Shown here piece after piece: positions 1,866 to 28,252 of a stretch of DNA of 64,000 bases; the first letter of the stretch is position 1; each line of letters begins with the position of its first letter. Source of the stretch: an uncultured Planctomycetia bacterium (GTDB lineage: Bacteria > Omnitrophota > Gorgyraeia > 2-02-FULL-51-18); assembly GCA_964606485.1 (NCBI GenBank), contig CAZSGP010000003.1, forward strand, positions 130,481 to 194,480, read 5' to 3'. The translations under genes and the position numbers were made by a program. The notes under the pieces were generated by a model. That model was not told where the DNA came from. It was given only the letters and a program-made list of their open reading frames with translations, and did no database searches.

Positions 1866-1981
1866 ACGAACCTCCCGTGGTCAAAAAAATATTTAAATAC
1901 TGTGCGTCCAAGATAACAGGTCATGCTTTGCCGCTAAATAAGGGGAATTACTATTTTTTTTATAGGGGCGACGCCTTATAT

Positions 1982-2007
1982 ATGCTTCCGGGATGCAGAC
2001 AGGGTTC
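1982..2007. repeat. Repeat family A, copy 1 (consensus 'ATGCTTCCGGGATGCATACTGGGTTC')
   Basis: 26/29 match to the copies at 3149, 4655 and 5487. It sits just upstream of the first cassette-like gene. Confidence 0.7.
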
Positions 2008-2038
2008 TGGTAGAATGGTCTGATCAACAGGAGACGCA

Positions 2039-2566
2039 ATGTTTAAAAAATTACTATTGAGTGTAATCACAGTTTTGATTTTGGTTGTAGCTTATGCAGC
2101 AACGAAGCCTTCGGAGTACATGGTGTTTCGGGAAGTTTCTATCAATGCACCAGCCGAAAAGATTTTTACACTGATCAACAATTCCCGTGAAACCGAGCGG
2201 TGGATGCCTTGGGCCGAGACCGATCCAAAAATGAAGATGAGCTATTCTGGTCCGGAGTCGGGAGTCGGATCGAAAGCCTCCTGGGAGAGTCCTGGGCAGA
2301 TGGGTGTCGGATCGTCGACGATTTCTGAAAGCGCTCCGAATCAGTCCGTGAAGTACAGTCTCGAATACACAAAGCCTTTTCAAATGAAACAGACAGCTGA
2401 GATATCGATTACCCCTTCAGGCGGCAAGAACGTTGTGCGTTGGTCGGTGTGGGGTCACAATAAATTATTCTGCCGTGTGGTTTGCCTATTTATGGATATG
2501 GATAAGATGGTGGGTGGAAGTTTTGAGCAGGGGTTGAATAAGCTTAAAGTTATTGCGGAGGGATAG
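2039..2566 (+). CDS. SRPBCC (polyketide cyclase/START-like) family protein with an N-terminal transmembrane helix
   Basis: Size and sequence pattern ('INAPAEKIF...W..W') fit the SRPBCC fold. The match is weak. Confidence 0.4.
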
Positions 2567-2567
2567 A

Positions 2568-2990
2568 ATGAACAATATGCTCAAAGAGTTTAGAGATTTT
2601 GCCGTCAAAGGGAACGTGATCGACATGGCGGTGGGTGTGATCATCGGCGCGTCGTTTGGAAAAATCGTAACATCGCTCGTGTCCGATGTGCTAATGCCTC
2701 CGATTGGCCGGATTGTCGGCGGGGCGGATTTTTCAAATTATTTTTTGCTTTTAGGCGAAGGTTCTTTTACGACGCCGGAAGCTGCCAAGGCTGCGGGTGT
2801 GGCGACGCTAAACTACGGCGTGTTCATTAATAATATTATCAATTTTTTAATCGTCGCTTTTTGCGTTTTTATGATGGTCAAGGCAATCAATATGGCCAAA
2901 AAGAAAGAAGCCGAAGCGCCAAAGCCCGCTCCGGTGACACCGCCGGATGTGCTGTTGTTACAGGAAATCCGAGATTTATTGAAAAAATAA
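2568..2990 (+). CDS. mscL: Large-conductance mechanosensitive channel MscL
   Basis: The N-terminus '[31 protein letters not shown]' is near-canonical for MscL. A GGAGGG ribosome-binding site precedes the ATG at 2568. Confidence 0.9.
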
Positions 2991-3098
2991 TCCTTCAAGA
3001 TCACAAATTGTGACCAGTTCGCTTAATTCATTTTTCGTCAGTTGAAACAAAAAATCAGATGGAAAGCGGCCGCTATTTCTTTTAACTGCTTGGTTTAT

Positions 3099-3148
3099 TC
3101 CTCCCACTACACAAGACGTCAGACCCTTCGATTTTTACCAAAAATATT
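3099..3148. repeat. Repeat family D, copy 1 (50 bp)
   Basis: 49/50 identical to 5367..5416. At that second copy the reverse complement supplies the GGGAGG ribosome-binding site and 5'UTR of the ORF6N gene. Here no ORF follows, so it is an orphan copy. Confidence 0.8.
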
Positions 3149-3182
3149 GATTTTGTATGCTTCCGGGATGCATACTGGGTTC
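3149..3182. repeat. Repeat family A, copy 2 (34 bp 'GATTTTGTATGCTTCCGGGATGCATACTGGGTTC')
   Basis: Identical to 5487..5520. It is followed by the near-palindrome 'CAGATCCGGGATCTG'. Confidence 0.85.
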
Positions 3183-3247
3183 TAATTCAGATCCGGGATC
3201 TGAACTGGGTTTTGGTTTACCTATCACCACCTCAGGGCTGAAATTTT

Positions 3248-3436
3248 ATGGAAGTAGTACTTCTTATAGCGCTTTGCGTATTAGGATTGTACTTATTTTT
3301 TCTGCCCTCGATAATTGCTTATAACAAACAAAAGAAGAGGGCGGGTATGATTTTCTTGCTCAATTTTTTTGTTGGAGCAACAGGCGTTGGCTGGGTGGTT
3401 CTTCTAATTTGGTCTTGCGGAAACGATAGCAGCTGA
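3248..3436 (+). CDS. Superinfection-immunity-like small membrane protein (Imm_superinfect-like)
   Basis: 62 aa with two transmembrane helices. The motif 'AYNKQKKRAGMIFLLNFFVGATGVGWVVLLIWS' matches the Imm family consensus (A..R.H.N..IF.LN...G.TGIGW..ALIW). Confidence 0.6.
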   Translation: MEVVLLIALCVLGLYLFFLPSIIAYNKQKKRAGMIFLLNFFVGATGVGWVVLLIWSCGNDSS

Positions 3437-3518
3437 TTGGTGATTACGATATTTTTTAAGTTGTGTGTACCTGGACATCGGGAATATCCGATCCAGACTT
3501 GATGGAGAAAAATGCAGA

Positions 3519-3884
3519 ATGTCTAAATCTGTAACGACATATTGGAATCCGTTGATGCCGGATAAAGCGTCTTCCTGGACGCCCGTTAAGGGGCTTGAGG
3601 GAATTGCTGAAGAGTTGACCCTGAGCATGGATTCCGAATCTGGCGAGTATACCCGCTTAACTCGCTTTCTCCCTGGAGCCGATACCACTTCCTTTGGTGG
3701 AAAAACCCACAATTATCCTGAAGAAGTTTTTGTTGTGAGTGGGCGATTGTTTGACGTGGCTTTCGGCAAATGGCTTGAACAGGGACACTACGCTAGTCGT
3801 CCTCCCGGTGAAATCCACGGACCATTTAGGACGGATATTGGTTGTGTGGTTTTGGAAGTTTCTTTTCCGGGCAGGAAAGACTAA
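3519..3884 (+). CDS. Cupin-domain protein (ChrR-like cupin)
   Basis: A small beta-barrel-type sequence with a GGAGA ribosome-binding site before the ATG at 3519. The family assignment is tentative. Confidence 0.4.
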   Translation: MSKSVTTYWNPLMPDKASSWTPVKGLEGIAEELTLSMDSESGEYTRLTRFLPGADTTSFGGKTHNYPEEVFVVSGRLFDVAFGKWLEQGHYASRPPGEIHGPFRTDIGCVVLEVSFPGRKD

Positions 3885-3914
3885 GGGAATCAGGCGACCT
3901 GATATTTAATTCAG

Positions 3915-3940
3915 CAATTAAGTTATGTGTCCCTGGAATT
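3915..3940. repeat. Repeat family C, copy 1 ('AATTAAGTTATGTGTCCCTGGAATT')
   Basis: Recurs at 4754, 7095 and 7911. Its reverse complement resembles family A (TTCC[A]GGGA.CATA), so A and C behave as imperfect inverted partners. Confidence 0.8.
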
Positions 3941-4066
3941 CCCGGACGTGGTCCGGTAAAAACGGTAAAATGAGAAAATGGTAAAAAGGCAAACCGTAAG
4001 TATTGCTATTGGTAGCGGGCTCAGGTATACTTATTGTAGTTACAAATATGACTACAGGAGATACAC

Positions 4067-4354
4067 ATGACTTTAGCGACGGAGCTTCTTAGAGCCAGAC
4101 ATGTTGGGGTGAGGGATTTAAAAGCGCATCTGTCAGAAAGAATTAAGACCCGAAAGCCGCTCATTGTCACTGAGCATGGGGAGCCTAAACAGGTCATAAT
4201 TCCTTATGACGTGATTGTTGGAATCGCAGAAGTGCTGCAGGAGCTAGATGATAAGGAGCTCGTTAAAGCAGTGCGGCTTTCCCGCGCAGCCACAAAAAAA
4301 GGGAATGGCATTCCTGTAGAAATACTTTTTAACAAGATGAGATCTAAAAGGTAA
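4067..4354 (+). CDS. Type II antitoxin, Phd/YefM family
   Basis: 95 aa. The N-terminus ('VGVRDLKAHLSERI...PLIVTEHGEPKQVIIPYD') is Phd-like. It lies immediately upstream of a RelE-like toxin. Confidence 0.7.
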   Translation: MTLATELLRARHVGVRDLKAHLSERIKTRKPLIVTEHGEPKQVIIPYDVIVGIAEVLQELDDKELVKAVRLSRAATKKGNGIPVEILFNKMRSKR

Positions 4355-4357
4355 ATC

Positions 4358-4651
4358 TTGAACTACCGGGTTATTTTTGCTCATCCATCGATTAAAAGAA
4401 ATTTTGAAAAAACCCTCCTAACCGCTTCAGCGGAGCTTCGAGATGCAATCGTGCGCAGCGTCGTCAATTTGTCGAATAATCCACGGCCCCATGGGGTCAT
4501 AAAAATAAAACCCCCTTTGGATATTTATCATTCTTTGGCCGGATACCGTATTCGCATTCAAAACTACAGAGTGTTCTACGATATTGATGAAGAAAGAAAA
4601 ACTGTGTCAGTGATTGCTTTAAGAAGGCGCAATGAAGGCACTTATAAATAA
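4358..4651 (+). CDS. Type II toxin, RelE/ParE family
   Basis: 97 aa, overlapping or abutting the antitoxin. The C-terminus 'YRIRIQNYRVFYDIDEERKTVSVIALRRR' is typical of RelE/ParE. It probably starts with TTG. Confidence 0.7.
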   Translation: MNYRVIFAHPSIKRNFEKTLLTASAELRDAIVRSVVNLSNNPRPHGVIKIKPPLDIYHSLAGYRIRIQNYRVFYDIDEERKTVSVIALRRRNEGTYK

Positions 4652-4654
4652 CCG

Positions 4655-4682
4655 CTTGCTTCCGGGATGCATACTGGGTTCC
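4655..4682. repeat. Repeat family A, copy 3
   Basis: Starts 4 nt after the RelE stop codon. Together with the hairpin at 4697-4733 and C copy 2 it makes a compact ~126-bp element. Confidence 0.8.
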
Positions 4683-4696
4683 AATTCGGGTGCACG

Positions 4697-4733
4697 CAGA
4701 TCCCGGATCTGGCCTTTGAAGATCCGGGATCTT
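4697..4733. repeat. Perfect 13-bp inverted repeat hairpin (AGATCCCGGATCT-N9-AGATCCGGGATCT)
   Basis: Read directly from the sequence. It forms the centre of the A-C element. Confidence 0.85.
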
Positions 4734-4753
4734 CACGAGGTCGGTGTGGCCCG

Positions 4754-4780
4754 CTAAATTAAGTGTGTGTCCCCGGAATT
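4754..4780. repeat. Repeat family C, copy 2 (variant 'AATTAAGTGTGTGTCCCCGGAATT')
   Basis: ~22/25 match to the other C copies. Confidence 0.75.
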
Positions 4781-4832
4781 TCTGCGGAATTTCACGGAAT
4801 TTCAAAATCATCGCAGAGGCTTGAACCCATAA

Positions 4833-5360
4833 TTAGATCGCATGAAACCCGATTGACCTCTTAGGTTTTGGAGCGGGCGTTTCTAGCAGTTCCCGAATCG
4901 CTTCAAAAACTATCTTAAACTGCTTATCATGTTTTTCGTATTTTTGCTCAAGCTCTTCAATTTTTTGTCGAATTAGTTCATTGCTTGAGATCATTTCCCT
5001 TAACTTAGTAAACGTGCGCATAATTTGAATGTTGACTTGAATCGCGCGTCTACTATTTAAAACCGAAGACAACATTAGGATGCCGTGTTCGGTAAAAGCG
5101 TGTGGCAGGTATCTCTGACCGCCCCATCTTGAGGTTCCAATTTGGAACCTCAAGATTTCAGCCTCATCCTTAGAAAGCTTAAACATGAAATCCGCAGGAA
5201 ACCGGTCACGGTTTCGAGCTACAGCCTTATTTAGTTCCTTGGTTCTGACTCCATAAAGCTCAGCCAATTCCTTGTCGAGCATCACTTTCTTACCCCTGAT
5301 GATGTAGATTTTATTTTCCACAGCAACACCTGAAATTGGTCCAAATACCTGCTTAGTCAT
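4833..5360 (-). CDS. ORF6N-domain (KilA-N/antirepressor-like) protein
   Basis: The block 'IRGKKVMLDKELAELYGVRTKELNKAVARNRDRFPADFMF...RYLPHAFTEHGILMLSSVLNSRRAIQVNIQIMRTF' is a strong ORF6N signature. The ATG at 5358-5360 is preceded by GGGAGG, which lies inside repeat D. Confidence 0.85.
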   Translation of the reverse strand: MTKQVFGPISGVAVENKIYIIRGKKVMLDKELAELYGVRTKELNKAVARNRDRFPADFMFKLSKDEAEILRFQIGTSRWGGQRYLPHAFTEHGILMLSSVLNSRRAIQVNIQIMRTFTKLREMISSNELIRQKIEELEQKYEKHDKQFKIVFEAIRELLETPAPKPKRSIGFHAI

Positions 5361-5366
5361 AAATAA

Positions 5367-5416
5367 TCCTCCCACTACACAAGACGTCAGACCCCTCGAT
5401 TTTTACCAAAAATATT
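5367..5416. repeat. Repeat family D, copy 2
   Basis: Direct copy of 3099..3148. It contains the ORF6N ribosome-binding site and leader on the minus strand. Confidence 0.8.
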
Positions 5417-5486
5417 TTCAACATTTTTTAAACTCTTAACGTTTTGAGAGGGGAAGATGAGTTGGTGCACCTCAATCTCGGTAGTT

Positions 5487-5520
5487 GATTTTGTATGCTT
5501 CCGGGATGCATACTGGGTTC
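5487..5520. repeat. Repeat family A, copy 4
   Basis: 34/34 identical to 3149..3182. Confidence 0.85.
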
Positions 5521-5522
5521 AC

Positions 5523-5590
5523 GTGGTCCGGTCTACTCGGCCTTGCGGTCAGAGGAGCAAGTAGTCAGTTGGAGACTTGACCCCTTATTT
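5523..5590. repeat. Repeat family B, copy 1 (68 bp)
   Basis: 67/68 identical to 6857..6924. It contains an internal hairpin (CTACTCG...CAAGTAG). Confidence 0.9.
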
Positions 5591-5622
5591 ATTTGTATTT
5601 GCAGCATGAAAAAGGAGATAAA

Positions 5623-6012
5623 TTGAAAAAAACTATACCGTTTATACTAGTTATATTTGTTTGCCGGATGGGATGGGCGGAAAGTATCGTTTTTGAAGGT
5701 GCGCCGGATATCAAGGGTGTAAATACTCTGCAGGATGTATTTAATGAGCCGGTCAATGATGAGAACAAGAAAACTTCACGCCTAGTAATAACCAAGGAGA
5801 ATGGCCAATATATTTGGTTCTCTAGAGAAAAAAATAAGCTTCGATTTTATAAAGATGATAATTTTATATATTTTGTTCGGGAGGATAGACCGGATTATAT
5901 AAAAATTTCAAAGCCGCCCCAATCGGAAGGAAAATATATTTATATGGAACATATGTCCGATGGTATGAAGACGCTCACTTATTGGGGGAAATCCGATAAA
6001 TTAGAATTATAG
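5623..6012 (+). CDS. Hypothetical secreted protein (~129 aa)
   Basis: TTG start with an AAAGGAG ribosome-binding site 5 nt upstream. It has an N-terminal signal-like hydrophobic segment. No recognisable domain. Confidence 0.45.
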   Translation: MKKTIPFILVIFVCRMGWAESIVFEGAPDIKGVNTLQDVFNEPVNDENKKTSRLVITKENGQYIWFSREKNKLRFYKDDNFIYFVREDRPDYIKISKPPQSEGKYIYMEHMSDGMKTLTYWGKSDKLEL

Positions 6013-6091
6013 GCAGCGCAACGGGCAAGAAGTGGTTTATGTAAAACTCTTAAGAGAAGGGAGGTAAGGTCGAGCAAATCGACATAGTTTT

Positions 6092-6733
6092 ATGTCTCAA
6101 GAATATTTCGAAAAAATCAACGAAGCTCTTGAAATTCAGAAAAAATATTCAGCGCTAAAAATACCGGTTTTTGATCAGATTGGTTCTCAAAGCGCTTTAA
6201 GTCCCAATTTTTGGATTAAAGGACAAGCCCAGAACTACATTTTTGCGAGCACGCATTTATCTGGGCAGATTATCGAGGCTCTCCAAAAAGCACATCTTCA
6301 ACTTGCAGTTGTAGGAAGCAGAACGCTTTTTGAAATGGCAGTAAATGCGACTTATATTTACAATCATCCAAAAAAAAGAAAAAGACTTTCTCCAATTCAA
6401 ATGAGAGAAGTTTGTAAAAAAATTGTTTGGTTGGCAAATAAAAGGCGAGGACATGTAAATCATTCCAAAATCGAAGGAACTATCAAAAGTCGATTAGAAT
6501 CGATGGGAATGGGATCTTCATATAGAACTACCTACAGAGTTATGAGCGACTGGGCGCACTTACAATCACGGGCAATTCAGATTTCTGCAGATCCACAAAA
6601 GGCCACGAAATTTGGCATACAAATAGCAGAAGTTACCTTACGAGGCCTCCACAACACTTTCGATTCGATATGCACATATTTCAAGTACGCGCTTGATCCG
6701 GCGTTGGAGCAAGAGGTGATTGGCTTTAAGTAA
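6092..6733 (+). CDS. Hypothetical protein (213 aa), mostly helical by composition
   Basis: Clean ORF in the cassette region with no family recognised. The segment 'KRRGHVNH' loosely fits an R-x4-6-H (HEPN-like) motif, but this is very tentative. Confidence 0.4.
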   Translation: MSQEYFEKINEALEIQKKYSALKIPVFDQIGSQSALSPNFWIKGQAQNYIFASTHLSGQIIEALQKAHLQLAVVGSRTLFEMAVNATYIYNHPKKRKRLSPIQMREVCKKIVWLANKRRGHVNHSKIEGTIKSRLESMGMGSSYRTTYRVMSDWAHLQSRAIQISADPQKATKFGIQIAEVTLRGLHNTFDSICTYFKYALDPALEQEVIGFK

Positions 6734-6856
6734 GACGCTAGGTAACACCGATATCGAAAAGCGGGCGGCTTATAGAGCATATTTGATGCAACCTAGGCGA
6801 AATGAAATGCTACTGGAGATGAAAAGCTAACGTGTCCCCAAAAGGGCGTTTCGGAG

Positions 6857-6924
6857 GTGGTCCGGTCTACTCGGCCTTGCGGTCAGCGGAGCAAGTAGTC
6901 AGTTGGAGACTTGACCCCTTATTT
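6857..6924. repeat. Repeat family B, copy 2
   Basis: Direct repeat of 5523..5590. The two B copies bracket the two-gene module 5623-6733. Confidence 0.9.
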
Positions 6925-7094
6925 TCAAAAAACGAGCTGCAAAAATTGGCGCAAATGGTGTGTTGCTAACAACCACAGGAACTCAGACATCTGCGATGGC
7001 TGGTGGTTATGGGACTGGCGCGATGTGGGTTATACCAGTAAATGCTAAAGTTGTTAAGGGGACGGCAATTTTTGTAAGTGAGGAGTAGTGGTTT

Positions 7095-7120
7095 AAATTA
7101 AGTTATGTGTCCCTGGAATT
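7095..7120. repeat. Repeat family C, copy 3
   Basis: 25/25 match to copy 1. Confidence 0.85.
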
Positions 7121-7140
7121 ATGTGCCGAGGTTGACGAGG

Positions 7141-7809
7141 ATGTCAAATGTCAAAGACCAAACTTCCCCTTATTTTATGAACAAATGCATTAGGTTTGCG
7201 GTCGGAGCAAAAACAGGCCTAAAATCCTCAATATATAACATCACTGTCTGTAAAAATGATATTTACATCTCTGCAGGTATATTAACGAGAGAGACAAAGG
7301 TTAGCATTCATGAAAGCGGTTGTGGGCAATGGTCATACAGATCTGAGGTTTGGAAGGATCGGAAAAAGCCAAATAATGAAAGACATATAGTAAAATGGAA
7401 CTCCCTAATACCTACCGATCTAAAAGCAGTAAATGTTCTTCGAATACGAATACCACATACAACATTAACTCAATATTCTGCACCCTCATCAGAAGATAAG
7501 GTTAAATGGGTTTCCGGGTTACTGTCAGGAACATATCAATTTGATTTATGTCTAACACCACCATCTCAAACAGATCCAGCGCGAGACAGAAGTGACTTAC
7601 CACATGAAGTACTAGGTACATTACAATTGAATGACAAGCGGTGGTTGGTTGTATTTTACCAAGGAACCCCATCGTTAAGTATCCCGAAAGAAGATATCTT
7701 ACGAGAAATAGGAAATAAGGATATTAACCTTCAGGGAACGGGGGGTATGTGTCTTTTTGGTGCTAGTGATGATGGTGTCCCTGTAATGATTGAATGTGTA
7801 TTAAAATAA
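7141..7809 (+). CDS. Hypothetical protein (~222 aa)
   Basis: ORF with no recognisable domain, bracketed by C copies 3 and 4. Confidence 0.4.
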   Translation: MSNVKDQTSPYFMNKCIRFAVGAKTGLKSSIYNITVCKNDIYISAGILTRETKVSIHESGCGQWSYRSEVWKDRKKPNNERHIVKWNSLIPTDLKAVNVLRIRIPHTTLTQYSAPSSEDKVKWVSGLLSGTYQFDLCLTPPSQTDPARDRSDLPHEVLGTLQLNDKRWLVVFYQGTPSLSIPKEDILREIGNKDINLQGTGGMCLFGASDDGVPVMIECVLK

Positions 7810-7910
7810 GAGTTACACACATGACCTACACCAACAAAACACAACTAAAAAATAATGACCAAACCCCCTTTTAAATTCAGCAAAATCAGGGGACGCAATA
7901 CTCAATTCGA

Positions 7911-7936
7911 TAATTAAGTTATCTATTCCCCGGAAT
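7911..7936. repeat. Repeat family C, copy 4 (variant)
   Basis: The core 'TAATTAAGTTAT...CCCCGGAAT' matches. This copy is more diverged. Confidence 0.6.
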
Positions 7937-7980
7937 CCACGAAATTCATATTTGCACAGTACACGTTAATATGGTATTAT

Positions 7981-8277
7981 TTGACCGTGATCATCAGCTT
8001 TAAAGACCAGGCAACGGAAGACATTTTTAATGGAATATCTTCCAAGAAGGCTCTGAAGTTTCCTGTGGTTGTTTGGCAGGTGGGGAGTCGGAAGCTGGAC
8101 ATGATTAACGCGGCGCACGAACTAAAAGATCTTATGATTCCGCCCGGAAACCGCCTGGAAGCATTAAAAGGTGACTTGAAGGGATACCACAGCATTCGTA
8201 TTAATGAAAAATACAGGATTGTGTTTAAGTGGCTTGAGGCCAATGCATCTGAAGTCGAAATTAAAGATTACCACTAG
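7981..8277 (+). CDS. higB: HigB toxin (RelE/ParE superfamily, 'plasmid maintenance system killer')
   Basis: 98 aa. It is the HigB-type toxin of a HigB/HigA module and is encoded upstream of its antitoxin, as in higBA. The start codon (TTG or GTG) is uncertain. Confidence 0.7.
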   Translation: MTVIISFKDQATEDIFNGISSKKALKFPVVVWQVGSRKLDMINAAHELKDLMIPPGNRLEALKGDLKGYHSIRINEKYRIVFKWLEANASEVEIKDYH

Positions 8278-8285
8278 GGGGTAAA

Positions 8286-8558
8286 ATGATACCAACCAAT
8301 CGAAAACCAAATCATCCGGGGGAAATTCTATTAAAAGAGTTTCTGCAGCCGATGGGCTTAACTCAATTAGAGCTGGCAAAAAAAATGCATGTGCCCGTTC
8401 AAAGAGTCAACACGCTTATCAATGAAAAAAGAGGTGTGACTGCGGAGACGGCTATTTTGTTGAGCGAAATATTGAAAACCTCGGCAGAATTCTGGATGAA
8501 TTTGCAGGCAACATATGATCTTTATGAGGCGCGGCACCATCTCAAGATAGCGGCTTAA
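8286..8558 (+). CDS. higA: HigA antitoxin (XRE-family HTH)
   Basis: The N-terminus 'HPGEILLKEFLQPMGLTQLELAKKMHVPVQRVNTLINEKRGVTAETAILLSEIL' is canonical for HigA/VapI. Confidence 0.85.
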   Translation: MIPTNRKPNHPGEILLKEFLQPMGLTQLELAKKMHVPVQRVNTLINEKRGVTAETAILLSEILKTSAEFWMNLQATYDLYEARHHLKIAA

Positions 8559-22739: not shown

Positions 22740-23783
22740 ATGCGCGTTTCGGTTTTAGGGCTTAATTTTAAAACAGCGTCCGTAGACATACGGGAGCGGC
22801 TCTCTGTGCCCGCGCATAAAATGCCGGAACTTTTTAAGAGGCTCGAAGAAAAAAAGATTTTTGACGAGCGTTTGGTGCTTTCAACCTGCAACCGCACGGA
22901 AATTTACGGCGTGGACGCAAACGGAAAGTCGTCGGTCGAAGAGACAAAAGCATTTTTATGCGAATACTCGTCGCTGTCGAAGGCGGAGATTGACCACGCG
23001 CTCTATGTGCTGGACGGACCACAATCGGTGGATCACTTGTTTCGCGTGGCGTCGGGCCTCGACTCCATGATCATTGGGGAAACAGAAATTACGGGACAGG
23101 TGAAGAACGCGTATAAATTAGCCCAGGAACATCACCAGACCGGGAAAGTGTTGAATCATTTATTTCAAAAATCGTTGAAAGTTGCCAAAGACTTGCGCAC
23201 GAAGACAGAAATAGGCGCGGGGCGCGTGAGTGTAGCGTCGGTGGCGGTGGATTTGGCGGAGAAAATATTTGAAGATTTGAAAAATTCGCGCGTGATGGTG
23301 GTGGGAACCGGTGAAATGTCGACCCAAGTGGCGAAGGCGCTGATTTCCAAAGAAGCAAAGGCAGTGATTGTGTCGAGCCGGCATTTTGAACGCGCAAAAG
23401 AGCTCGCCAAAGAGTTGGGTGGCGAGGCGCTGGATTTTCGGGAATTTGAAGCACATGCGCCGGCGGCGGACATCATTGTGACGGCCACCGAAGCGCCGTG
23501 TTCCTTGATACGCGAAGAGCATGGGCGGGCGTGGATGAAAATGCGGCGCGAGCGGCCTTTGTTTTTAATTGATATTGCCGTACCCAGAAACATAGATCCA
23601 GCGATCAACGAGCTGGATGGTGTGTTTTTGTACAACATTGATGACCTGCAAAATATTTCCAATAAAAATTTGGCAATTCGGGAAAGTCATCTGGAGAAAT
23701 GCATGGAGATGGTGTCGGTGCAGACGGCGCATTGCATGAGCTGGATTAAAAAAGAATTTGGCGGGGCAAGTCATGGCGCCTAA
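22740..23783 (+). CDS. hemA: Glutamyl-tRNA reductase
   Basis: Motif 'LSTCNRTEIYG' and an NADPH-binding 'VVGTGEMS' segment. Confidence 0.9.
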   Translation: MRVSVLGLNFKTASVDIRERLSVPAHKMPELFKRLEEKKIFDERLVLSTCNRTEIYGVDANGKSSVEETKAFLCEYSSLSKAEIDHALYVLDGPQSVDHLFRVASGLDSMIIGETEITGQVKNAYKLAQEHHQTGKVLNHLFQKSLKVAKDLRTKTEIGAGRVSVASVAVDLAEKIFEDLKNSRVMVVGTGEMSTQVAKALISKEAKAVIVSSRHFERAKELAKELGGEALDFREFEAHAPAADIIVTATEAPCSLIREEHGRAWMKMRRERPLFLIDIAVPRNIDPAINELDGVFLYNIDDLQNISNKNLAIRESHLEKCMEMVSVQTAHCMSWIKKEFGGASHGA

Positions 23784-24774
23784 AAAAATCATACGGATTG
23801 GATCGCGGGGAAGCTTGCTTGCGCTCGCGCAAAGTAAAAATATTTTAAAAATACTTCAAAAAAAGTTTAAACAGTACCGATTTAAACTGGTGATCATTAA
23901 AACAACCGGTGATGAATTTCAGAGCGTTGAGCTTTTTAAGACGGCGAATATTGGTGTTTTTACGAAAGAATTGGAAAAAAAGCTGCTGGCTAGACAGATT
24001 GATATTGCGGTGCATAGCCTAAAAGACTTGCCGACTAATCTAGCGCCAGGGCTCGTGCTTGGCGGCTACCCGAAGCGCGAAGATTCACGCGATGTGCTGG
24101 TCACGAAAAAAAATTATACGCTTAAAACCATTCCTGAAGGCGGCGTCGTGGGGACGGGGAGTTTGCGGCGGCAAAGGCAGATTAAACTCGTGCGGCCGGA
24201 TTTAAATGTGGTGGCGATTCGTGGGAATTTGAATACGCGGATTCTGAATGTGATCCGCGAAAATCAGTACCACGGGGTCGTGGTCGCGCGCGCGGGTCTC
24301 GTGCGGGTTAAAAAATATTTGAAATACGCATGGCCGATCCCGCCAAAAATTATGATGACGGCGGTAGCGCAGGCAGTGCTCGGAGTGCAGGTGCGCGCAG
24401 AGGATGAAGTCAGCTTAAAAATGGCGCAGAGCTTGAATCACAAGCCGACCGAACTTGCGGCGAGAATCGAGAGACACTTCTTAAACGCGCTCGAAGGCGG
24501 TTGCCGCGTGCCGGTAGGGGTCGAGACAAAGATTAGTGGAAAAAATATTTCGCTCAAGGCCGCGGTGTTTTCGGTGAAGACGAAGGCGGTGATTCGGGGG
24601 GAGATTAAGGGATCTGCTGAGAAATTGGAAGTGTTGGCTGAGACGCTAGCAAAGCAAATGCTTAAAAAAGGGGCGGACGGGTTTTTGAAGGAAGCTAGGG
24701 AAGGCGTTGCCACTCAAGAACACAGGTTCGGCAGGGAAGTGTGGGGAAAACCCATGGGGCGAGAAGTTTGGTGA
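23773..24774 (+). CDS. hemC: Porphobilinogen deaminase (hydroxymethylbilane synthase)
   Basis: 'IRIGSRGSLLALAQS' N-terminus. The annotated 3' end and stop lie inside a 33-bp direct repeat, so the C-terminal ~15 aa are repeat-encoded. Confidence 0.85.
   Translation: MAPKKIIRIGSRGSLLALAQSKNILKILQKKFKQYRFKLVIIKTTGDEFQSVELFKTANIGVFTKELEKKLLARQIDIAVHSLKDLPTNLAPGLVLGGYPKREDSRDVLVTKKNYTLKTIPEGGVVGTGSLRRQRQIKLVRPDLNVVAIRGNLNTRILNVIRENQYHGVVVARAGLVRVKKYLKYAWPIPPKIMMTAVAQAVLGVQVRAEDEVSLKMAQSLNHKPTELAARIERHFLNALEGGCRVPVGVETKISGKNISLKAAVFSVKTKAVIRGEIKGSAEKLEVLAETLAKQMLKKGADGFLKEAREGVATQEHRFGREVWGKPMGREVW
24742..24774. repeat. Direct repeat copy 1 (TGGGGAAAACCCATGGGGCGAGAAGTTTGGTGA) at the 3' end of hemC
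   Basis: Repeated at 26111..26142 with a single 1-nt indel. Confidence 0.9.
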
Positions 24775-24780
24775 TATCGA

Positions 24781-25503
24781 ATGTTGGGGATTGACCCAAT
24801 GAGAAGAGCGTTCCCATTTCTGCTTATCGGAATCGCTTATTGTTTGGTGCGCGGTTGGGTTTACTCGGTTTTGCCGGTTCGAACTTTTGAAGATTGGTTC
24901 TGGCGGGATACGTGGATGAATTTTCCGCGAATTGTCGGAGCTGTTTTGTGTTTATGGTTCGGCTTGAAGTTTTGGGGTCGAAAAAATTTCGGGTTTCACT
25001 CAAGCTCACTGCTTGCGGCACTAATTGCCGGGGCGATTTGTGTGGGGGATATTTTTTCGAGAACCCTCTACCCAATTCAGTGTAAGATTCTCCTGAATAT
25101 TGGACTTGTGATTTTTATAGGCAGTAGCCTGTGTGTGGCTTTATTTGAAGAGCTCCTTTTTCGGGGAGGGTTGCTACAATCACTTAAAGAGCGGCACGGG
25201 AATTTTATTGCGATTTGGATTTCGTCGTTTTTATTTACAATTTTTCATATTCAGGCCCAAGAGTTTCATGGTTGGCCATTTATTTTTATGAGCGGGCTCT
25301 TTTGGGCCGGATTAAGAATTTACCAAAGGGTTTCGCTGGTGTGGTTGATTGTTATTCATTGGGTGGTGGATGTGGTGTGGATTTTCAGACAGACTCCAGA
25401 ATATTTTATGGGGTACTCGCTCTATTCTTTGAGGGTTTTGGCGTGGGTCGTTGTTTTGGGGGCCTACTACTTGTGGGTGTGGAGGCGTAGGGCAATTTCA
25501 TGA
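24781..25503 (+). CDS. CPBP-family (CAAX protease/Abi) intramembrane metalloprotease
   Basis: Motifs 'EELLFRG' and 'FxxxH' ('FLFTIFHIQ') in a polytopic membrane protein. Confidence 0.75.
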   Translation: MLGIDPMRRAFPFLLIGIAYCLVRGWVYSVLPVRTFEDWFWRDTWMNFPRIVGAVLCLWFGLKFWGRKNFGFHSSSLLAALIAGAICVGDIFSRTLYPIQCKILLNIGLVIFIGSSLCVALFEELLFRGGLLQSLKERHGNFIAIWISSFLFTIFHIQAQEFHGWPFIFMSGLFWAGLRIYQRVSLVWLIVIHWVVDVVWIFRQTPEYFMGYSLYSLRVLAWVVVLGAYYLWVWRRRAIS

Positions 25504-25602
25504 TGCGAGCGAAGGTTTATTTGGTAGGGGCGCACCTTATTTTAGAGCAGGCGTTGAAATTATAACGTTATAATGTTATAATGTTACTCATGGAGAGCAG
25601 AC

Positions 25603-25827
25603 ATGACAAAAGCCACGACTGTTTATATTGATAACCGCCTTTTGCAGGCGGCGAAGCTTAAAGCGATTCAGGTGCATCAGAGCGTTTCGCATCTCATTAA
25701 CGATGCCTTGCGAATGGCTCTAAAAGAAGATGCGATGGATTTAGAAGCGATCCGTAAGCGTAAAAAGGAACCGACTATTTCGTTTGAAGCCGCACTCAAA
25801 GACCTAGAGAAGAATGGCCTCTTATAA
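25603..25827 (+). CDS. Type II antitoxin (RHH/ParD-like)
   Basis: 74 aa, directly upstream of and overlapping a RelE/ParE toxin gene. Confidence 0.6.
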   Translation: MTKATTVYIDNRLLQAAKLKAIQVHQSVSHLINDALRMALKEDAMDLEAIRKRKKEPTISFEAALKDLEKNGLL

Positions 25828-26074
25828 ACTGTCTCTAAAAGTTTCGGCGCAAAAAGAGCTTAAGAAAATTCATAAACCGCTTATCGCGCAGATCGTCAAA
25901 CGCATTCAGGCGTTGGCGGCTGATCCGCGTCCGCATAACTGCCAGATGCTTAATCAGGATGAGGGGTATTTCCGTGTGCGTCAGGGGGATTACCGGATTA
26001 TTTATGAAATTGATGATGAGGCGGGGCTCGTTGTGATTCTTAAAATCGGCCATCGCAGTGATGTTTATAAATAG
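25814..26074 (+). CDS. Type II toxin, RelE/ParE family
   Basis: 'YRIIYEIDDEAGLVVILKIGHRSDVY' C-terminus. Confidence 0.8.
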   Translation: MASYKLSLKVSAQKELKKIHKPLIAQIVKRIQALAADPRPHNCQMLNQDEGYFRVRQGDYRIIYEIDDEAGLVVILKIGHRSDVYK

Positions 26075-26110
26075 AAAATTGGGTCTAGTTTAAATGAAAT
26101 CAAAAGTTTA

Positions 26111-26142
26111 TGGGGAAACCCATGGGGCGAGAAGTTTGGTGA
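26111..26142. repeat. Direct repeat copy 2
   Basis: 32/33 identical to 24742..24774. This copy is intergenic. Confidence 0.9.
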
Positions 26143-26216
26143 GTATTCCTTTGACTGGTCTTGAAATAACCCTTCAATTATACTATAATACTACTATATT
26201 AAATTAGGGGGTTTGG

Positions 26217-26459
26217 ATGCACAACAAGGCACATATCAATATTACTTTGGATGCCGCGATTTTAAACTGGATTGACCGGTTACGCGGACAAAAGCCAAGA
26301 TCAACGTTTATTAATTCTATCTTGGATCAATTCTGCGAAAAAGAGCAGGCTGTTTTTGATTGGGCTCATGAAGGCAAGAAAGCGGATGAGGACATCCAAA
26401 AGGGCCGGGTTCATAAATTTACGGATTCCAAGAAAGCGGCTAAGTGGCTAAAGAGTTAG
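26217..26459 (+). CDS. Type II antitoxin (RHH/CopG-like)
   Basis: 'INITLDAAILNWIDRL' ribbon-helix-helix-like N-terminus. It overlaps the downstream toxin. Confidence 0.55.
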   Translation: MHNKAHINITLDAAILNWIDRLRGQKPRSTFINSILDQFCEKEQAVFDWAHEGKKADEDIQKGRVHKFTDSKKAAKWLKS

Positions 26460-26713
26460 TCTACACGGCAACTTTTAAGGAAAACTATCAGCGCCTGCCC
26501 AAAAAAATACAAGAAACCTTTGATCGGAAGCAGGAGTTGTTTCTGAAAGATCCAAAGCACCCCTCATTAAATATTCACCGATACCATGGGAAAGACGGCG
26601 TGTGGGAGGCTTATGTGAACGAAAAATACCGCTTCACTTTTGCGGTAACGGAAAACAGTCTTATTTTTCGTAATATCGGTTCTCATGGAATAATTGACAA
26701 GGGAAAGGTTTGA
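26444..26713 (+). CDS. Type II toxin, RelE/ParE (YafQ-like) family
   Basis: 'LPKKIQETF...DPKHPSLNIHRYHGKDGVWEAYVNEKYRFTF' matches the RelE/YafQ pattern. Confidence 0.65.
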   Translation: MAKELVYTATFKENYQRLPKKIQETFDRKQELFLKDPKHPSLNIHRYHGKDGVWEAYVNEKYRFTFAVTENSLIFRNIGSHGIIDKGKV

Positions 26714-26722
26714 AATAATCGC

Positions 26723-28252
26723 ATGAACAGCAAGGTCTATCTTGTCGGTGCAGGTCCCGGAGACCCGGGGCTTTTGACGCTCAAGGCGTGTCGGGCGCTG
26801 GAAGAAGCGGATCTTGTGATCTATGACTATCTCTCAAACACAGAGCATTTGAATCACTGTAAGAGCACCGTGCAAAAAGTGGCGGTGGGGAAAGGGTTCC
26901 GTCACAAGGCGATTTCCCAGCAAAAAATTAACCGTTTGATTGTGAGTGCGGCACAAAAAAATCAAACTGTGGTGCGGCTTAAGGGCGGAGACCCGTACTT
27001 GTTTGGCCGCGGCGGCGAAGAGGCGCTTTTTTTACACGAGCACAAAATTCCATTTGAAGTGGTGCCGGGCGTCACCAGTGCGACGGCTTGTGCGGCGTAC
27101 GCGGGGATTCCGCTCACACACCGCGACCACAACCAAAGTGTGACGTTTCTCACCGGACACCGGGCCGAAGACGGGCACCTGGACACGCTGCCGTGGAAAA
27201 AGATCGTAGAGATGGGCGGAACGCTTGCTATTTACATGGGGTTTTATAATTTAAAATCGATTGCCGAGAATTTGATTAAAAACGGAATGAACACGGATAT
27301 GCCTGTTGCCGTTGTGGAATGGGGAACGCTGCCGACGCAAAAAAGTGTGGTGGGAGCGCTTAAAAATATTGGGACGCTGGTTGAAAAAAAGAATTTGAAG
27401 CCGCCAGCGATGATTTTTATAGGCGAAGTGGTTGGTTTAAGCGCAAAACTCAACTGGTACGAGCGGCTGCCGCTCTTTGGTAAAAAAATTGTGATTACCC
27501 GCACCAAAGAACGCGCCGGTGCGATGACAGAAAAACTGAGAAACCTGGGTGCGGAGGTCGTGGAGTTTCCGGTGATTGAGATTGGAAAGCCCAAAAGTTT
27601 TACCGGGCTTGATGGGGCGCTCAGAGAAATTCAAAAATTTGATTGGGTGGTGTTTTCAAGCACGTATGGAGTCGAAAGTTTTTTTGAACGCCTTGCGGCG
27701 CAAAAAAAAGACGCACGGGCTTTGAGCGGCATAAAATTTGCCTGTGTGGGGCCGGGAACAGCAATGGCGCTTAAAAGTTTTGGAGTGAGCACGGATTTAC
27801 TGCCGGATCACTACGAGACGTCGGCGATTGTTGAAAAATTTAGAACGGCTAAAATAAATTTAAAAGAAAAAAGAGTGCTTTTGCCGCGGACGGACATTGC
27901 ACCCCCGGCGCTTCAAGTGGGGCTTAAAAAACTGGGAGCGCTTGTCACCCAGGTGACGGCGTACACGACGCGGACGCCAAAAATAATTTCGGCGGAATTT
28001 AAAAAAGAAATTTTAACAAATGGCGCCGACTTTGTGACGTTTACAAGCTCGTCGACGGTGGATAATTTTGTTAAGATCATGGGGCTTCGCGAGGTGAAAC
28101 GGCTTTCAAAAAAGGCGAAACTGGCGAGCATAGGCCCGGTGACAAGTGAAGCGATGCGGCGATACGGACTCAAACCCGCGGTAGAGGCAAAAATTTTTAC
28201 GGTAGAAGGACTAGTGAATGCGATAAAGAATTGTCATTCCCGCAAGTTTTAA
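26723..28252 (+). CDS. Bifunctional uroporphyrinogen-III C-methyltransferase / uroporphyrinogen-III synthase
   Basis: N-terminal 'VYLVGAGPGDPGLLTLKA' (CobA/CysG methyltransferase). The C-terminal ~250 aa are HemD-like. Confidence 0.8.
   Translation: MNSKVYLVGAGPGDPGLLTLKACRALEEADLVIYDYLSNTEHLNHCKSTVQKVAVGKGFRHKAISQQKINRLIVSAAQKNQTVVRLKGGDPYLFGRGGEEALFLHEHKIPFEVVPGVTSATACAAYAGIPLTHRDHNQSVTFLTGHRAEDGHLDTLPWKKIVEMGGTLAIYMGFYNLKSIAENLIKNGMNTDMPVAVVEWGTLPTQKSVVGALKNIGTLVEKKNLKPPAMIFIGEVVGLSAKLNWYERLPLFGKKIVITRTKERAGAMTEKLRNLGAEVVEFPVIEIGKPKSFTGLDGALREIQKFDWVVFSSTYGVESFFERLAAQKKDARALSGIKFACVGPGTAMALKSFGVSTDLLPDHYETSAIVEKFRTAKINLKEKRVLLPRTDIAPPALQVGLKKLGALVTQVTAYTTRTPKIISAEFKKEILTNGADFVTFTSSSTVDNFVKIMGLREVKRLSKKAKLASIGPVTSEAMRRYGLKPAVEAKIFTVEGLVNAIKNCHSRKF

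Follow-up and report, generated by a model that had tools for sequence, protein, structure and literature searches.

The direct repeat that flanks part of a foreign islet in the heme operon of this uncultured Omnitrophota bacterium appears, on comparison of the sequences, to be the fossil of an antitoxin gene. Its 33 bases read as the coding sequence of the last nine or ten residues and the stop codon of MazE (an AbrB/SpoVT-type protein), present twice, and neither as hemC sequence nor as a dedicated attachment site. The islet occupies ~2 kb (about 24703-26722) at the hemC-cobA/hemD junction of the 64-kb stretch of DNA that we analyzed (the window; Table 1) and is made up of lineage-specific accessory genes that have accumulated at a point where the stop and start codons of hemC and cobA/hemD overlap in relatives. 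The best explanation, to which we assign a probability of roughly 0.55, is that a relic of a mazEF module lay behind hemC and that a unit consisting of a CPBP protease gene and a RelE-type toxin-antitoxin (TA) pair (TA1) then entered, duplicating the mazE 3' end.

Table 1. Features at the hemC-cobA/hemD junction, in window coordinates
Feature	Position	Strand	Remarks
hemC (porphobilinogen deaminase), part homologous to relatives	23773..24702	+	PF01379 and PF03900; alternative TTG start at 23758
Nonnative HemC tail, GVATQEHRFGREVWGKPMGREVW followed by stop	24703..24774	+	Putative in-frame fused relic of the MazE C-terminal (MazF-binding) tail
Direct repeat copy 1	24742-24774	+	TGGGGAAAACCCATGGGGCGAGAAGTTTGGTGA; codes for (W)GKPMGREVW and TGA (the hemC stop)
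CPBP/Rce1-like intramembrane glutamic protease, 240 aa	24781..25503	+	PF02517, E 1.4e-15, 57.7 bits (cutoff 22.4)
TA1 promoter, predicted, sigma-70-like, TTGAAA-17-TATAAT (11/12)	25554..25582	+	Within TTATAA(C/T)GTTATAATGTTATAATGTTAC repeats
TA1 antitoxin, 74 aa, ribbon-helix-helix type	25603..25827	+	Precomputed PF22180 (RH3_dom)
TA1 toxin, 86 aa, RelE family	25814..26074	+	PF05016, E 1e-14, 55 bits (cutoff 23)
Direct repeat copy 2	26110-26142	+	ATGGGGAAACCCATGGGGCGAGAAGTTTGGTGA; putative isolated mazE 3' relic, MGKPMGREVW and stop
TA2 promoter, predicted, sigma-70-like (11/12)	26161..26189	+	
TA2 antitoxin, 80 aa, ribbon-helix-helix-like N terminus	26217..26459	+	NCBIfam NF050104, residues 7-42, E 3e-6, below family cutoff
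TA2 toxin, 89 aa, RelE/ParE superfamily	26444..26713	+	Family-level matches
cobA/hemD fusion gene, intact N terminus (MNSKVYLVGAGPGDPG...)	26723..28252	+	PF00590 and PF02602; right islet edge

The original prediction, which had been made from this DNA alone, held that the heme operon is interrupted after hemC, and comparison with relatives bears this out. In the four Omnitrophota relatives for which genomic context was available, hemC abuts or overlaps the start of cobA/hemD and there is no insert. The G+C content of the islet is 0.38 to 0.47, versus 0.50 to 0.55 in the flanks, and the islet is, as far as these comparisons indicate, lineage specific. The genes hemC and cobA/hemD, the CPBP gene, and both TA pairs are intact, and the N terminus of the cobA/hemD product agrees with those of relatives. 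All genes of the region point the same way, and terminators are predicted no more often than by chance; thus, transcription of the downstream heme genes could continue through the islet.

The gene identities proposed earlier also held. The CPBP start codon lies 6 nt past the hemC stop, and the protein has the motifs of CPBP (Rce1/Abi-like) proteases, EExxxR, FxxxH, and HxxxD (E123, E124, and R128; F152 and H156; H193 and D197), which are invariant in the alignment. It is nearly an orphan: among 5.8 billion proteins, two homologues were detectable (33 to 38% identity), both of them distant and in unrelated contexts, and both retaining the N terminus and the motifs. TA1 and the second pair, TA2, share the canonical layout of type II TA systems of the RelBE/ParDE superfamily, in which a small antitoxin gene overlaps the gene for a RelE-fold toxin of ~86 to 89 aa (by 14 nt in TA1 and 16 nt in TA2), and each pair stands behind its own predicted promoter. 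The TA1 toxin matched RelE structures in the PDB (Rv2866/RelG, 3G5O, at 3.5e-10; E. coli RelE at about 1e-4); identity to the closest TA1 homologues does not exceed 59%. The TA2 toxin taken alone scored under the cutoff of TIGR02385 (21 versus 27.9 bits), and its placement in the RelE/ParE superfamily comes from its family, which comprises 694 representative clusters with members matching ParE_like, ParE_toxin, and YafQ and whose profile matches RelE3 (3BPQ) at 4e-8. By sequence, TA1, TA2, and the CPBP protein are ordinary but distant members of their families. Neither the antitoxins nor the toxins of TA1 and TA2 showed pairwise similarity to each other, and on this ground we rejected a tandem duplication of one TA module. 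Assignment of the islet to a defence system was likewise rejected, since PADLOC returned no meaningful match.

The two copies of the repeat are near-identical, as originally described. Local alignment of the 33-base copies gave 32 identical bases and one 1-nt indel, with a longest exact common run of 27 nt; the chance expectation for such a repeat is 0 (no matches in shuffled sequence). In register (24744-24774 versus 26112-26142), 30 of 31 bases are identical, and the sole difference is synonymous (GGA/GGG). The likeness does not reach significantly past ~33 nt: a leftward extension to ~40 nt was not significant (1,963 of 5,000 shuffles scored equally well), and no other duplicated sequence was found between or beside the copies. 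At their 3' ends, both copies are bounded by the identical base (TGA). There is no third copy within the 64-kb window, and the repeat families of a repeat-rich region at 1.9 to 8.3 kb have no copy near hemC. Searches of IMG/VR for the repeat and of the GTDB representative genomes (a set that does not include the genome of this organism) for an exact 21-mer and a degenerate 30-mer gave no matches. A common motif dispersed over the genome, which had been raised as a possible objection, was rejected on these counts, which cover the 64 kb of the window and those two collections.

The hemC open reading frame (23773/23758-24774) does run through copy 1, as predicted, takes its stop codon from it, and ends in ...GREVWGKPMGREVW. 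It had further been claimed that copy 1 regenerates the 3' end of hemC by an att-like duplication, and this part did not survive. Alignment of the HemC protein with 13 Omnitrophota homologues stops at ...FLKEARE. The native C terminus is shorter in relatives, as had been suspected: their HemC proteins end 1 to 9 residues past the EAR of the conserved ...KEAR, two having somewhat longer tails. The 23 to 24 extra residues of the window protein find their match instead in the C terminus of MazE antitoxins.

The MazE match emerged from a codon-degenerate search. The pattern GGNAARCCNATGGGNMGNGARGTNTGGTGA had five matches in public metagenomes, and all five are the last nine codons and stop of a mazE gene (...DWGKPMGREVW and stop). 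Every one of the matched open reading frames carries the MazE_antitoxin domain (PF04014), with the match at its extreme 3' end, and in each of the loci a PemK/MazF gene (PF02452) comes next, through an ATGGTGA overlap with the mazE stop. Over their full length, the five proteins can be aligned with E. coli MazE (1UB4 and 1MVF); among the MazE C termini compared (PDB 1UB4, 1MVF, and 7D2N), one ends in ...DWGALEGREEW. This C-terminal tail is a disordered, toxin-neutralising region (PMC4333400). Since every match to the degenerate 30-mer is a mazE 3' end, the HemC tail is best read as a relic of a MazE C terminus fused in frame and not as a regenerated native end of hemC. Consistent with this, a tblastn search with the last 28 aa of one metagenomic MazE (L010) matched the window at 24685-24771 (E 3e-5), and a second MazE (L007) matched it at 24712-24771 (E 5e-4), scores that are partly built in by the searched motif. 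The resemblance spans 20 to 29 aa, and the hemC open reading frame closes with the motif of the MazE tail, ...WG.P...EVW; upstream of WGKPMGREVW, it is weak and consists only of a T.E.H pattern.

Compared with an E. coli-type mazEF locus (chpA), the window has little left. The peptide encoded by the repeat, (W/M)GKPMGREVW and stop, matches the conserved MazF-binding end of MazE, but only the last 10 to 22 codons are kept, in one relic fused to HemC and in another that is noncoding. The N-terminal SpoVT/AbrB swapped-hairpin domain is absent, tblastn with the five MazE proteins finding only the terminal 10 to 29 aa in the window; no mazE body precedes copy 2, and no mazF follows it. Nothing in the window resembles MazF (best E value, 0.05, for an unrelated match).

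Integrative islands and prophages can enter the 3' ends of tRNA, tmRNA, or protein genes and are then flanked by att direct repeats. The original prediction had accordingly read the CPBP and TA genes as a decayed or satellite element that integrated site specifically into the 3' end of hemC, a model in which the repeats would be attL and attR. The likeness is real: direct repeats of att length (~30 bp) surround foreign cargo of lower G+C content, and the left copy ends an open reading frame and furnishes the hemC stop. The predicted absence of an integrase was confirmed, with no recombinase or transposase family in the islet open reading frames, in the genes within ~9 kb upstream and 8 kb downstream, or among the larger open reading frames scanned (most of the large ones in the 64-kb window), and it fits decay or mobilisation in trans. 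However, the repeat encodes the C terminus of MazE and not that of HemC; the native HemC ends ~23 residues earlier, overlapping cobA, so that nothing native is regenerated. The repeats had also been taken to bound the insert. They do enclose the CPBP gene and TA1 (24775-26109), but TA2 (26217-26713) comes after copy 2, leaving that half of the islet outside, and nonancestral DNA begins at ~24703, ~40 nt upstream of copy 1. Moreover, the insert-free relatives have no copy of the 33-mer, including the nearest hemC relative (59% identical), and this further weakens the att reading, although relatives at 59% identity or less are too distant to decide it. Unlike known islands of this kind, the insert is only 1.37 kb long and has neither integrase nor excisionase, and neither an empty site nor a second instance is known in public data. 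We therefore consider integration into a native hemC end unlikely. What stands of the earlier claim of a foreign element inserted by recombination is the low-G+C islet with its repeat-flanked 1.37-kb part, without the native-end att interpretation.

Integron cassettes and chromosomal cassette arrays often carry TA cassettes, and the islet resembles them: its orphan gene and its small TA modules, each with a predicted promoter, all read in one direction, and a short repeat marks a boundary like that of a cassette. In contrast with such arrays, the repeat lacks an attC-type imperfect palindrome, and on inspection no pair of attC cores (GTTRRRY/RYYYAAC) was visible; neither intI nor any other tyrosine recombinase was present among the window open reading frames scanned, and no third copy of the repeat follows TA2. 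Folding of the repeat on both strands did not go beyond shuffled controls (z-scores of about 0), and Rfam gave no match. With terminators at chance level as well, we rejected an integron attC, a terminator, and a structured RNA as identities of the repeat.

We favor instead a history in which a mazEF relic received the CPBP-TA1 unit, and we infer its steps, and the way in which the DNA recombined, as follows. A mazEF module would once have been located after hemC. A deletion would then have brought the final ~22 codons of mazE in frame behind hemC, just past ...KEARE, with mazF lost or replaced. The 1.37-kb unit of the CPBP gene and the RelE-type TA would next have entered right behind the mazE stop codon, in a recombination that made a second copy of some 32 bp from the 3' end of mazE and left copy 2 stranded ahead of the second RelE-type TA pair. 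The unit may have come in on a circular DNA that shared the short sequence with the chromosomal relic and recombined with it in a single crossover, one that was site specific, with the enzyme acting in trans, or that relied on short homology. An identity of 32 bp is short for RecA-dependent recombination, and we know of no recombinase able to act on the repeat site. The repeat duplication probably arose as the CPBP-TA1 unit recombined into the mazE relic.

The copies could also be unrelated to any insertion, representing independent relics of two tandem paralogous mazEF modules, each eroded to its last ~10 codons. The site does gather TA modules (two RelE-type pairs here; in one relative, L002, two PIN pairs adjoin panB). 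In addition, GREVW is encoded twice within the HemC tail, with 4 differences in 15 nt between the two stretches, every one of them synonymous, a pattern expected of different, once-selected mazE genes. Divergence between the copies points the other way: they differ at 1 of 30 nt, whereas independent mazE ends encoding the same nine residues differ at 3 to 6 of 30, which argues for one duplication as the source of both. Furthermore, both copies end at the same TGA base and both are entirely without mazF, and it is improbable that erosion stopped twice, independently, at the same 33 nt. It is thus doubtful that the repeat records two mazEF modules.

Several features would fit retention of the 33-mer in two copies for a function, either in translation coupling or ribosome binding or as a MazE-tail peptide or HemC tail that neutralises a MazF encoded elsewhere. 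GGTGAT precedes the CPBP ATG by 5 nt, the one base that differs in register leaves the amino acid unchanged, copy 2 forms a mini-open reading frame (MGKPMGREVW and stop), and in MazE it is the C-terminal tail alone that neutralises the toxin (PMC4333400). However, one synonymous difference carries no statistical meaning, the next start codon follows copy 2 after 74 nt that include a strong predicted promoter, the window has no mazF, and the repeat shows no conserved structure on either strand and no Rfam match. We regard selection for such a function as very improbable. An assembly artefact, in which a chimeric join was made through the short repeat of a metagenome-derived genome, is hardly credible. 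A Logan contig (L001) has the identical arrangement over 13 kb with 0 mismatches, and a separately assembled ENA contig (L019), which covers 23899-26272 and has four single nucleotide polymorphisms of its own, none of them in the repeats, also has both copies; the exact common run, moreover, is only 27 nt.

Exact-protein look-ups of TA1 and TA2 in public collections returned the same arrangement only and no empty-site variant, and neither a mobile form nor a second insertion of the CPBP-TA1 unit was found. A TA1-type module (74 plus 87 aa) does occur elsewhere, as a bare two-gene unit without the CPBP gene. With the CPBP homologues in unrelated contexts, we rejected the idea that CPBP and TA1 form a recurrent mobile unit. 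It is a long shot that the mazE 3' end serves as a recurrent recombination point for integrase-less cassettes mobilised in trans or that the HemC-borne tail or the mini-open reading frame acts as a MazF decoy.

Taken as a whole, the locus is ordinary, though tidy, genomic debris, and its value is mainly cautionary and descriptive: an att-like repeat that closes a housekeeping open reading frame appears to be the fossil of an antitoxin gene, exposed by a codon-degenerate search. The interest would be wider if the mazE end could serve recombination repeatedly or if the tail acted as a decoy for MazF; a decoy carried by HemC would link an essential heme enzyme to the control of a toxin. For the uncultured phylum Omnitrophota, the locus indicates how a biosynthetic operon with tightly coupled genes can be reshaped by TA turnover. 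Here, the stop/start overlap of hemC and cobA/hemD has been broken, HemC has gained a foreign tail of 23 residues, and the heme operon now houses an orphan membrane protease and two TA modules with predicted promoters of their own.

The direct repeats at the junction between hemC and cobA/hemD (copies 1 and 2; see the table) proved to be real. In register, the copies are identical at 30 of 31 positions with a spacing of 1368 nt (repeat finder); local alignment joined 32 identical bases across one 1-nt indel within an A-run and gave no significant leftward extension of the similarity. Pattern searches allowing up to 3 mismatches found just these two copies in the 64-kb window, and the pattern was absent from dinucleotide shuffles. 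The secondary structure of the repeats was not above that of shuffled controls on either strand, and Rfam had no match for them. As the original prediction stated, hemC reads through copy 1 (the ORF ends ...EHRFGREVWGKPMGREVW-stop). The prediction also had the repeats bounding the whole islet; however, copy 2 lies between the toxin-antitoxin (TA) pairs TA1 and TA2, and therefore the repeats enclose only the CPBP gene and TA1. A Logan contig matched the window with 0 mismatches across 13 kb, and a separately assembled ENA contig (ERZ4216102; 2374 nt) contains both copies and shows 4 SNPs, all of them outside the repeats. Misassembly does not account for the arrangement; these additional assemblies contradict that explanation, which deserves almost no weight.

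Features of the hemC-cobA/hemD islet and of the repeat-rich region at 1900-8300 (window positions)
Feature	Position	Strand	Details
Copy 1	24742-24774		TGGGGAAAACCCATGGGGCGAGAAGTTTGGTGA
CPBP/Rce1-like protease gene	24781-25503		PF02517
TA1 promoter, sigma-70-like	25554-25582		predicted, 11/12
TA1	25603-26074		74-aa antitoxin + 86-aa toxin (PF05016)
Copy 2	26110-26142		ATGGGGAAACCCATGGGGCGAGAAGTTTGGTGA
TA2 promoter, sigma-70-like	26161-26189		predicted, 11/12
TA2	26217-26713		80-aa + 89-aa pair
cobA/hemD	26723 (start)
SRPBCC + MscL	2039-2990
Small membrane ORF	~3249-3436
Cupin	3465-3884
Phd/YefM + ParE TA pair	4067-4651
ORF6N gene	4833-5375	-
Unknown-function ORF	5593-6012
DUF5677	6092-6733
Unknown-function ORF	7105-7809
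HigB + HTH	7981-8558
Motif B	1985, 3160, 4659, 5498		CTTCCGGGATGCATACTGGGTT
Motif D	~3456, 3918, ~4758, 7098, ~7914		TTAAGTTATGTGTCCCTGGAAT

The copies have a single in-register difference, GGA/GGG, which leaves the residue encoded in the hemC frame unchanged; for this reason, we screened public collections for the codon-degenerate pattern GGNAARCCNATGGGNMGNGARGTNTGGTGA. The pattern had no match in IMG/VR, and neither it nor the exact 21-mer matched GTDB representative genomes. Five loci in JGI metagenomes did match, and at all five the match is the last nine codons and the stop of an ~80-aa ORF that begins ...VKWGNSHAVRLPK... and ends ...DWGKPMGREVW-stop (DMGKPMGREVW-stop in one locus, L011). 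The ATG of the next gene, which reads MVKAPYVPDRGHLIKIDFDP..., overlaps this stop (ATGGTGA). By Pfam, these pairs are a MazE_antitoxin (PF04014) and a PemK/MazF toxin (PF02452), and the alignment of one of these proteins, a MazE, with E. coli MazE (PDB 1UB4/1MVF) and with 7D2N (...DWGALEGREEW) runs from end to end. The C-terminal tail of MazE is an intrinsically disordered region that binds and neutralizes MazF (PMC4333400). When metagenomic MazE was compared with the window by tblastn, it matched at 24685/24712-24771 (TQEHRFGREVWGKPMGREVW vs TPKNLHDEQDWGKPMGREVW; E values of 3e-5 to 6e-4, with the ten terminal residues fixed by the construction of the search and hence not independent evidence). 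The second and last place was 26110/26113-26139; no further mazE sequence and no mazF similarity was found anywhere in the window. Three lines of evidence are independent: the unconstrained DNA pattern fell on the very end of mazE in five cases out of five, the tail is not found in HemC relatives, and a weaker T.E.H...W pattern goes on upstream. Judged from sequence, copy 1 belongs to a mazE 3′ remnant joined in frame to hemC, and copy 2 is another such remnant, standing alone; it is very likely that the repeat represents the 3′ relic of a mazE gene in duplicate. We consider it highly improbable that the repeat is a functional element, whether for ribosome binding or coupling or as a MazF-decoy peptide; apart from the synonymous nature of the single difference and what is known of the MazE tail, this reading has no positive evidence.

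HemC (Pfam PF01379 and PF03900) has its best matches among Candidatus Omnitrophota proteins, the closest being 59% identical, the 100% self-match aside. The panB-ccsA-hemA-hemC-cobA/hemD-hemB-hemL cluster is kept in the four relatives with genomic context, and in all four hemC either runs into the cobA/hemD start or adjoins it (4 to 11 nt). When 14 HemC proteins were aligned, homology stopped at ...FLKEAR, beyond which the relatives mostly have 1 to 9 residues and the HemC of the window has 23 to 24 extra. Since the cobA/hemD N terminus is intact (MNSKVYLVGAGPGDPG), this end of HemC homology places the nonancestral DNA at ~24703 to 26722; the G+C content of the islet is 0.38 to 0.47, vs 0.50 to 0.55 in the flanks. 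The original prediction was of an integrative element in which the repeats are att sites and copy 1 regenerates the native hemC 3′ end. That model shares recombinational insertion with the mazE-relic reading, and its remark that no integrase remains was borne out: recombinase genes were absent from ~9 kb upstream to 8 kb downstream and from the other ORFs scanned across the window. However, it fails on two points, the regenerated native end (copy 1 encodes a MazE C terminus, and relatives' HemC mostly ends shortly past FLKEAR) and how much cargo the repeats bracket; we regard it as unlikely.

Two other Omnitrophota HemC proteins have short lineage-specific C-terminal extensions of their own (P0004 and P0015; ...KGLGNRER and ...FGGKEARKGLDNREG), and at L014, the locus of an Omnitrophota relative, the HemC extension overlaps the cobA/hemD start by 11 nt (4154-4164). 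Variable tails seem to be tolerated at the HemC C terminus. In the NCBI MAG of one relative (L005, 4476-6025), cobA/hemD is called as two ORFs, one of 200 aa without a Pfam match and one of 324 aa with HEM4, while a Logan contig with the same HemC protein (L006, 2212-3750) has a single 512-aa fusion; the discrepancy probably reflects a frameshift, or a mistake in assembly, in one of the two sequences.

Within the islet, the CPBP protein keeps the EExxxR, FxxxH, and HxxxD motifs and aligns from its first Met with its only two detectable homologues (33 to 38% identity), which lie in unrelated neighborhoods. This alignment places its start at 24781 (240 aa), 6 nt past the hemC stop, and the start in public gene calls (24916, 195 aa) is probably too short, leaving out 24781-24915. 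The TA1 toxin is RelE-like, matching 3G5O (Rv2866) at 3.5e-10 and also E. coli RelE. Its nearest relatives, from many phyla, are at most 59% identical, and one TA1-type module (74-aa RHH antitoxin and 87-aa toxin) occurs in an unrelated context without a CPBP gene. The TA2 toxin alone fell below family cutoffs; its family comprises 694 representative clusters (full HMMER search), with members that match ParE_like, ParE_toxin, and YafQ and a profile that matches RelE3 (3BPQ) at 4e-8. Terminator-like sites showed no excess over chance.

Independent mazE ends for the same nine residues are 3 to 6 of 30 nt apart from each other and from the window copies (except L007 and L008, metagenomic loci of one lineage). 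The window copies differ at 1 of 30 nt, end on the same base, and both lack mazF; nothing else is duplicated, with no detectable pairwise similarity between TA1 and TA2 in antitoxins or toxins. These features favor one duplication event, ~32 bp long, that was linked to the arrival of the intervening 1.34 kb. If two mazEF modules had eroded independently, both would have had to shrink to the same 33 nt with 1/30 divergence, which we consider unlikely. Because mazE-like context continues upstream of copy 1 and not of copy 2, copy 1 seems to be the resident one, and the insertion seems to have generated or delivered copy 2. The HemC tail encodes GREVW twice, 27 nt apart (24731-24772; GGCAGGGAAGTGTGG and GGGCGAGAAGTTTGG). 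The stretch outside the core of the repeat (24731-24745) and the GREVW of the repeat are separated by 4 synonymous changes in 15 nt, and the former is nearer to the L007/L008 codons; this suggests that mazE turnover at the hemC site has a longer history and hints that the tail may be two different mazE-derived pieces joined head to tail.

The islet is lineage specific and contains an intact CPBP gene along with two intact RelE-type TA modules, and the second near-identical 33-nt mazE relic lies 1.37 kb downstream of the HemC-fused one. We propose that a deletion cut a former mazEF module to its last ~22 codons, fusing them to hemC, and that the CPBP-TA1 segment later recombined in at the mazE stop codon, duplicating ~32 bp. 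A possible route would be a Campbell-type single crossover with circular DNA bearing the same short sequence, either site specific in trans or by short homology. We put the full statement, a mazE relic plus an insertion-linked duplication, at a probability of roughly 0.55.

By sequence, the parts are of known families (MazE tail, RelE/ParE TA pairs, CPBP protease). The whole islet is like small TA-bearing islets and like the direct-repeat scars of integrative elements but fails the defining tests of an integrase-mediated island and of an integron cassette. Two details are unusual, and we found no described equivalent of either: the fusion hemC::'mazE, and a duplicated junction that consists of the 3′ end of an antitoxin gene. 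They do not make the islet a new kind of system. That mazE ends are a reusable recombination point, or that the HemC tail is a MazF decoy, would be a slim prospect.

Elsewhere in the window, 1900-8300 is a repeat-rich accessory region built of small modules, which are separated by two recurring motifs, B and D. The motifs are imperfect inverted complements; adjacent B and D (4650-4790) pair as one long hairpin (-65 kcal/mol, z = -5.4), and nonadjacent ones flank cargo (3160...3456 and 5498...7098). The modules look as though they are bounded by terminal inverted repeats (MITE-like) or recombination sites. For these modules there was no recombinase in the window and no Rfam match, motif B had no exact match in IMG/VR, and none of the motifs of the region lies near hemC. 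A 68-nt repeat (5523-5590 and 6857-6924, 99% identical) and a 53-nt repeat (3096-3148 and 5364-5416, 96% identical) are also present. Because the 53-mer takes in the start of the minus-strand ORF6N gene at 5375 (its ribosome-binding site and 5′ end), the copy at 3096 may represent a truncated second version of this gene start.

In a related Omnitrophota genome (L002, ENA ERZ27253378 k141_1675322, 2184-3573; also L003), two PIN-domain TA pairs lie directly upstream of panB in the same conserved panB-ccsA-hemA-hemC cluster; TA insertion around the heme cluster therefore recurs in the phylum, at different junctions. As has been reported for TA loci in general, the TA modules of the islet may make it harder for recombination between the repeats to remove the segment.
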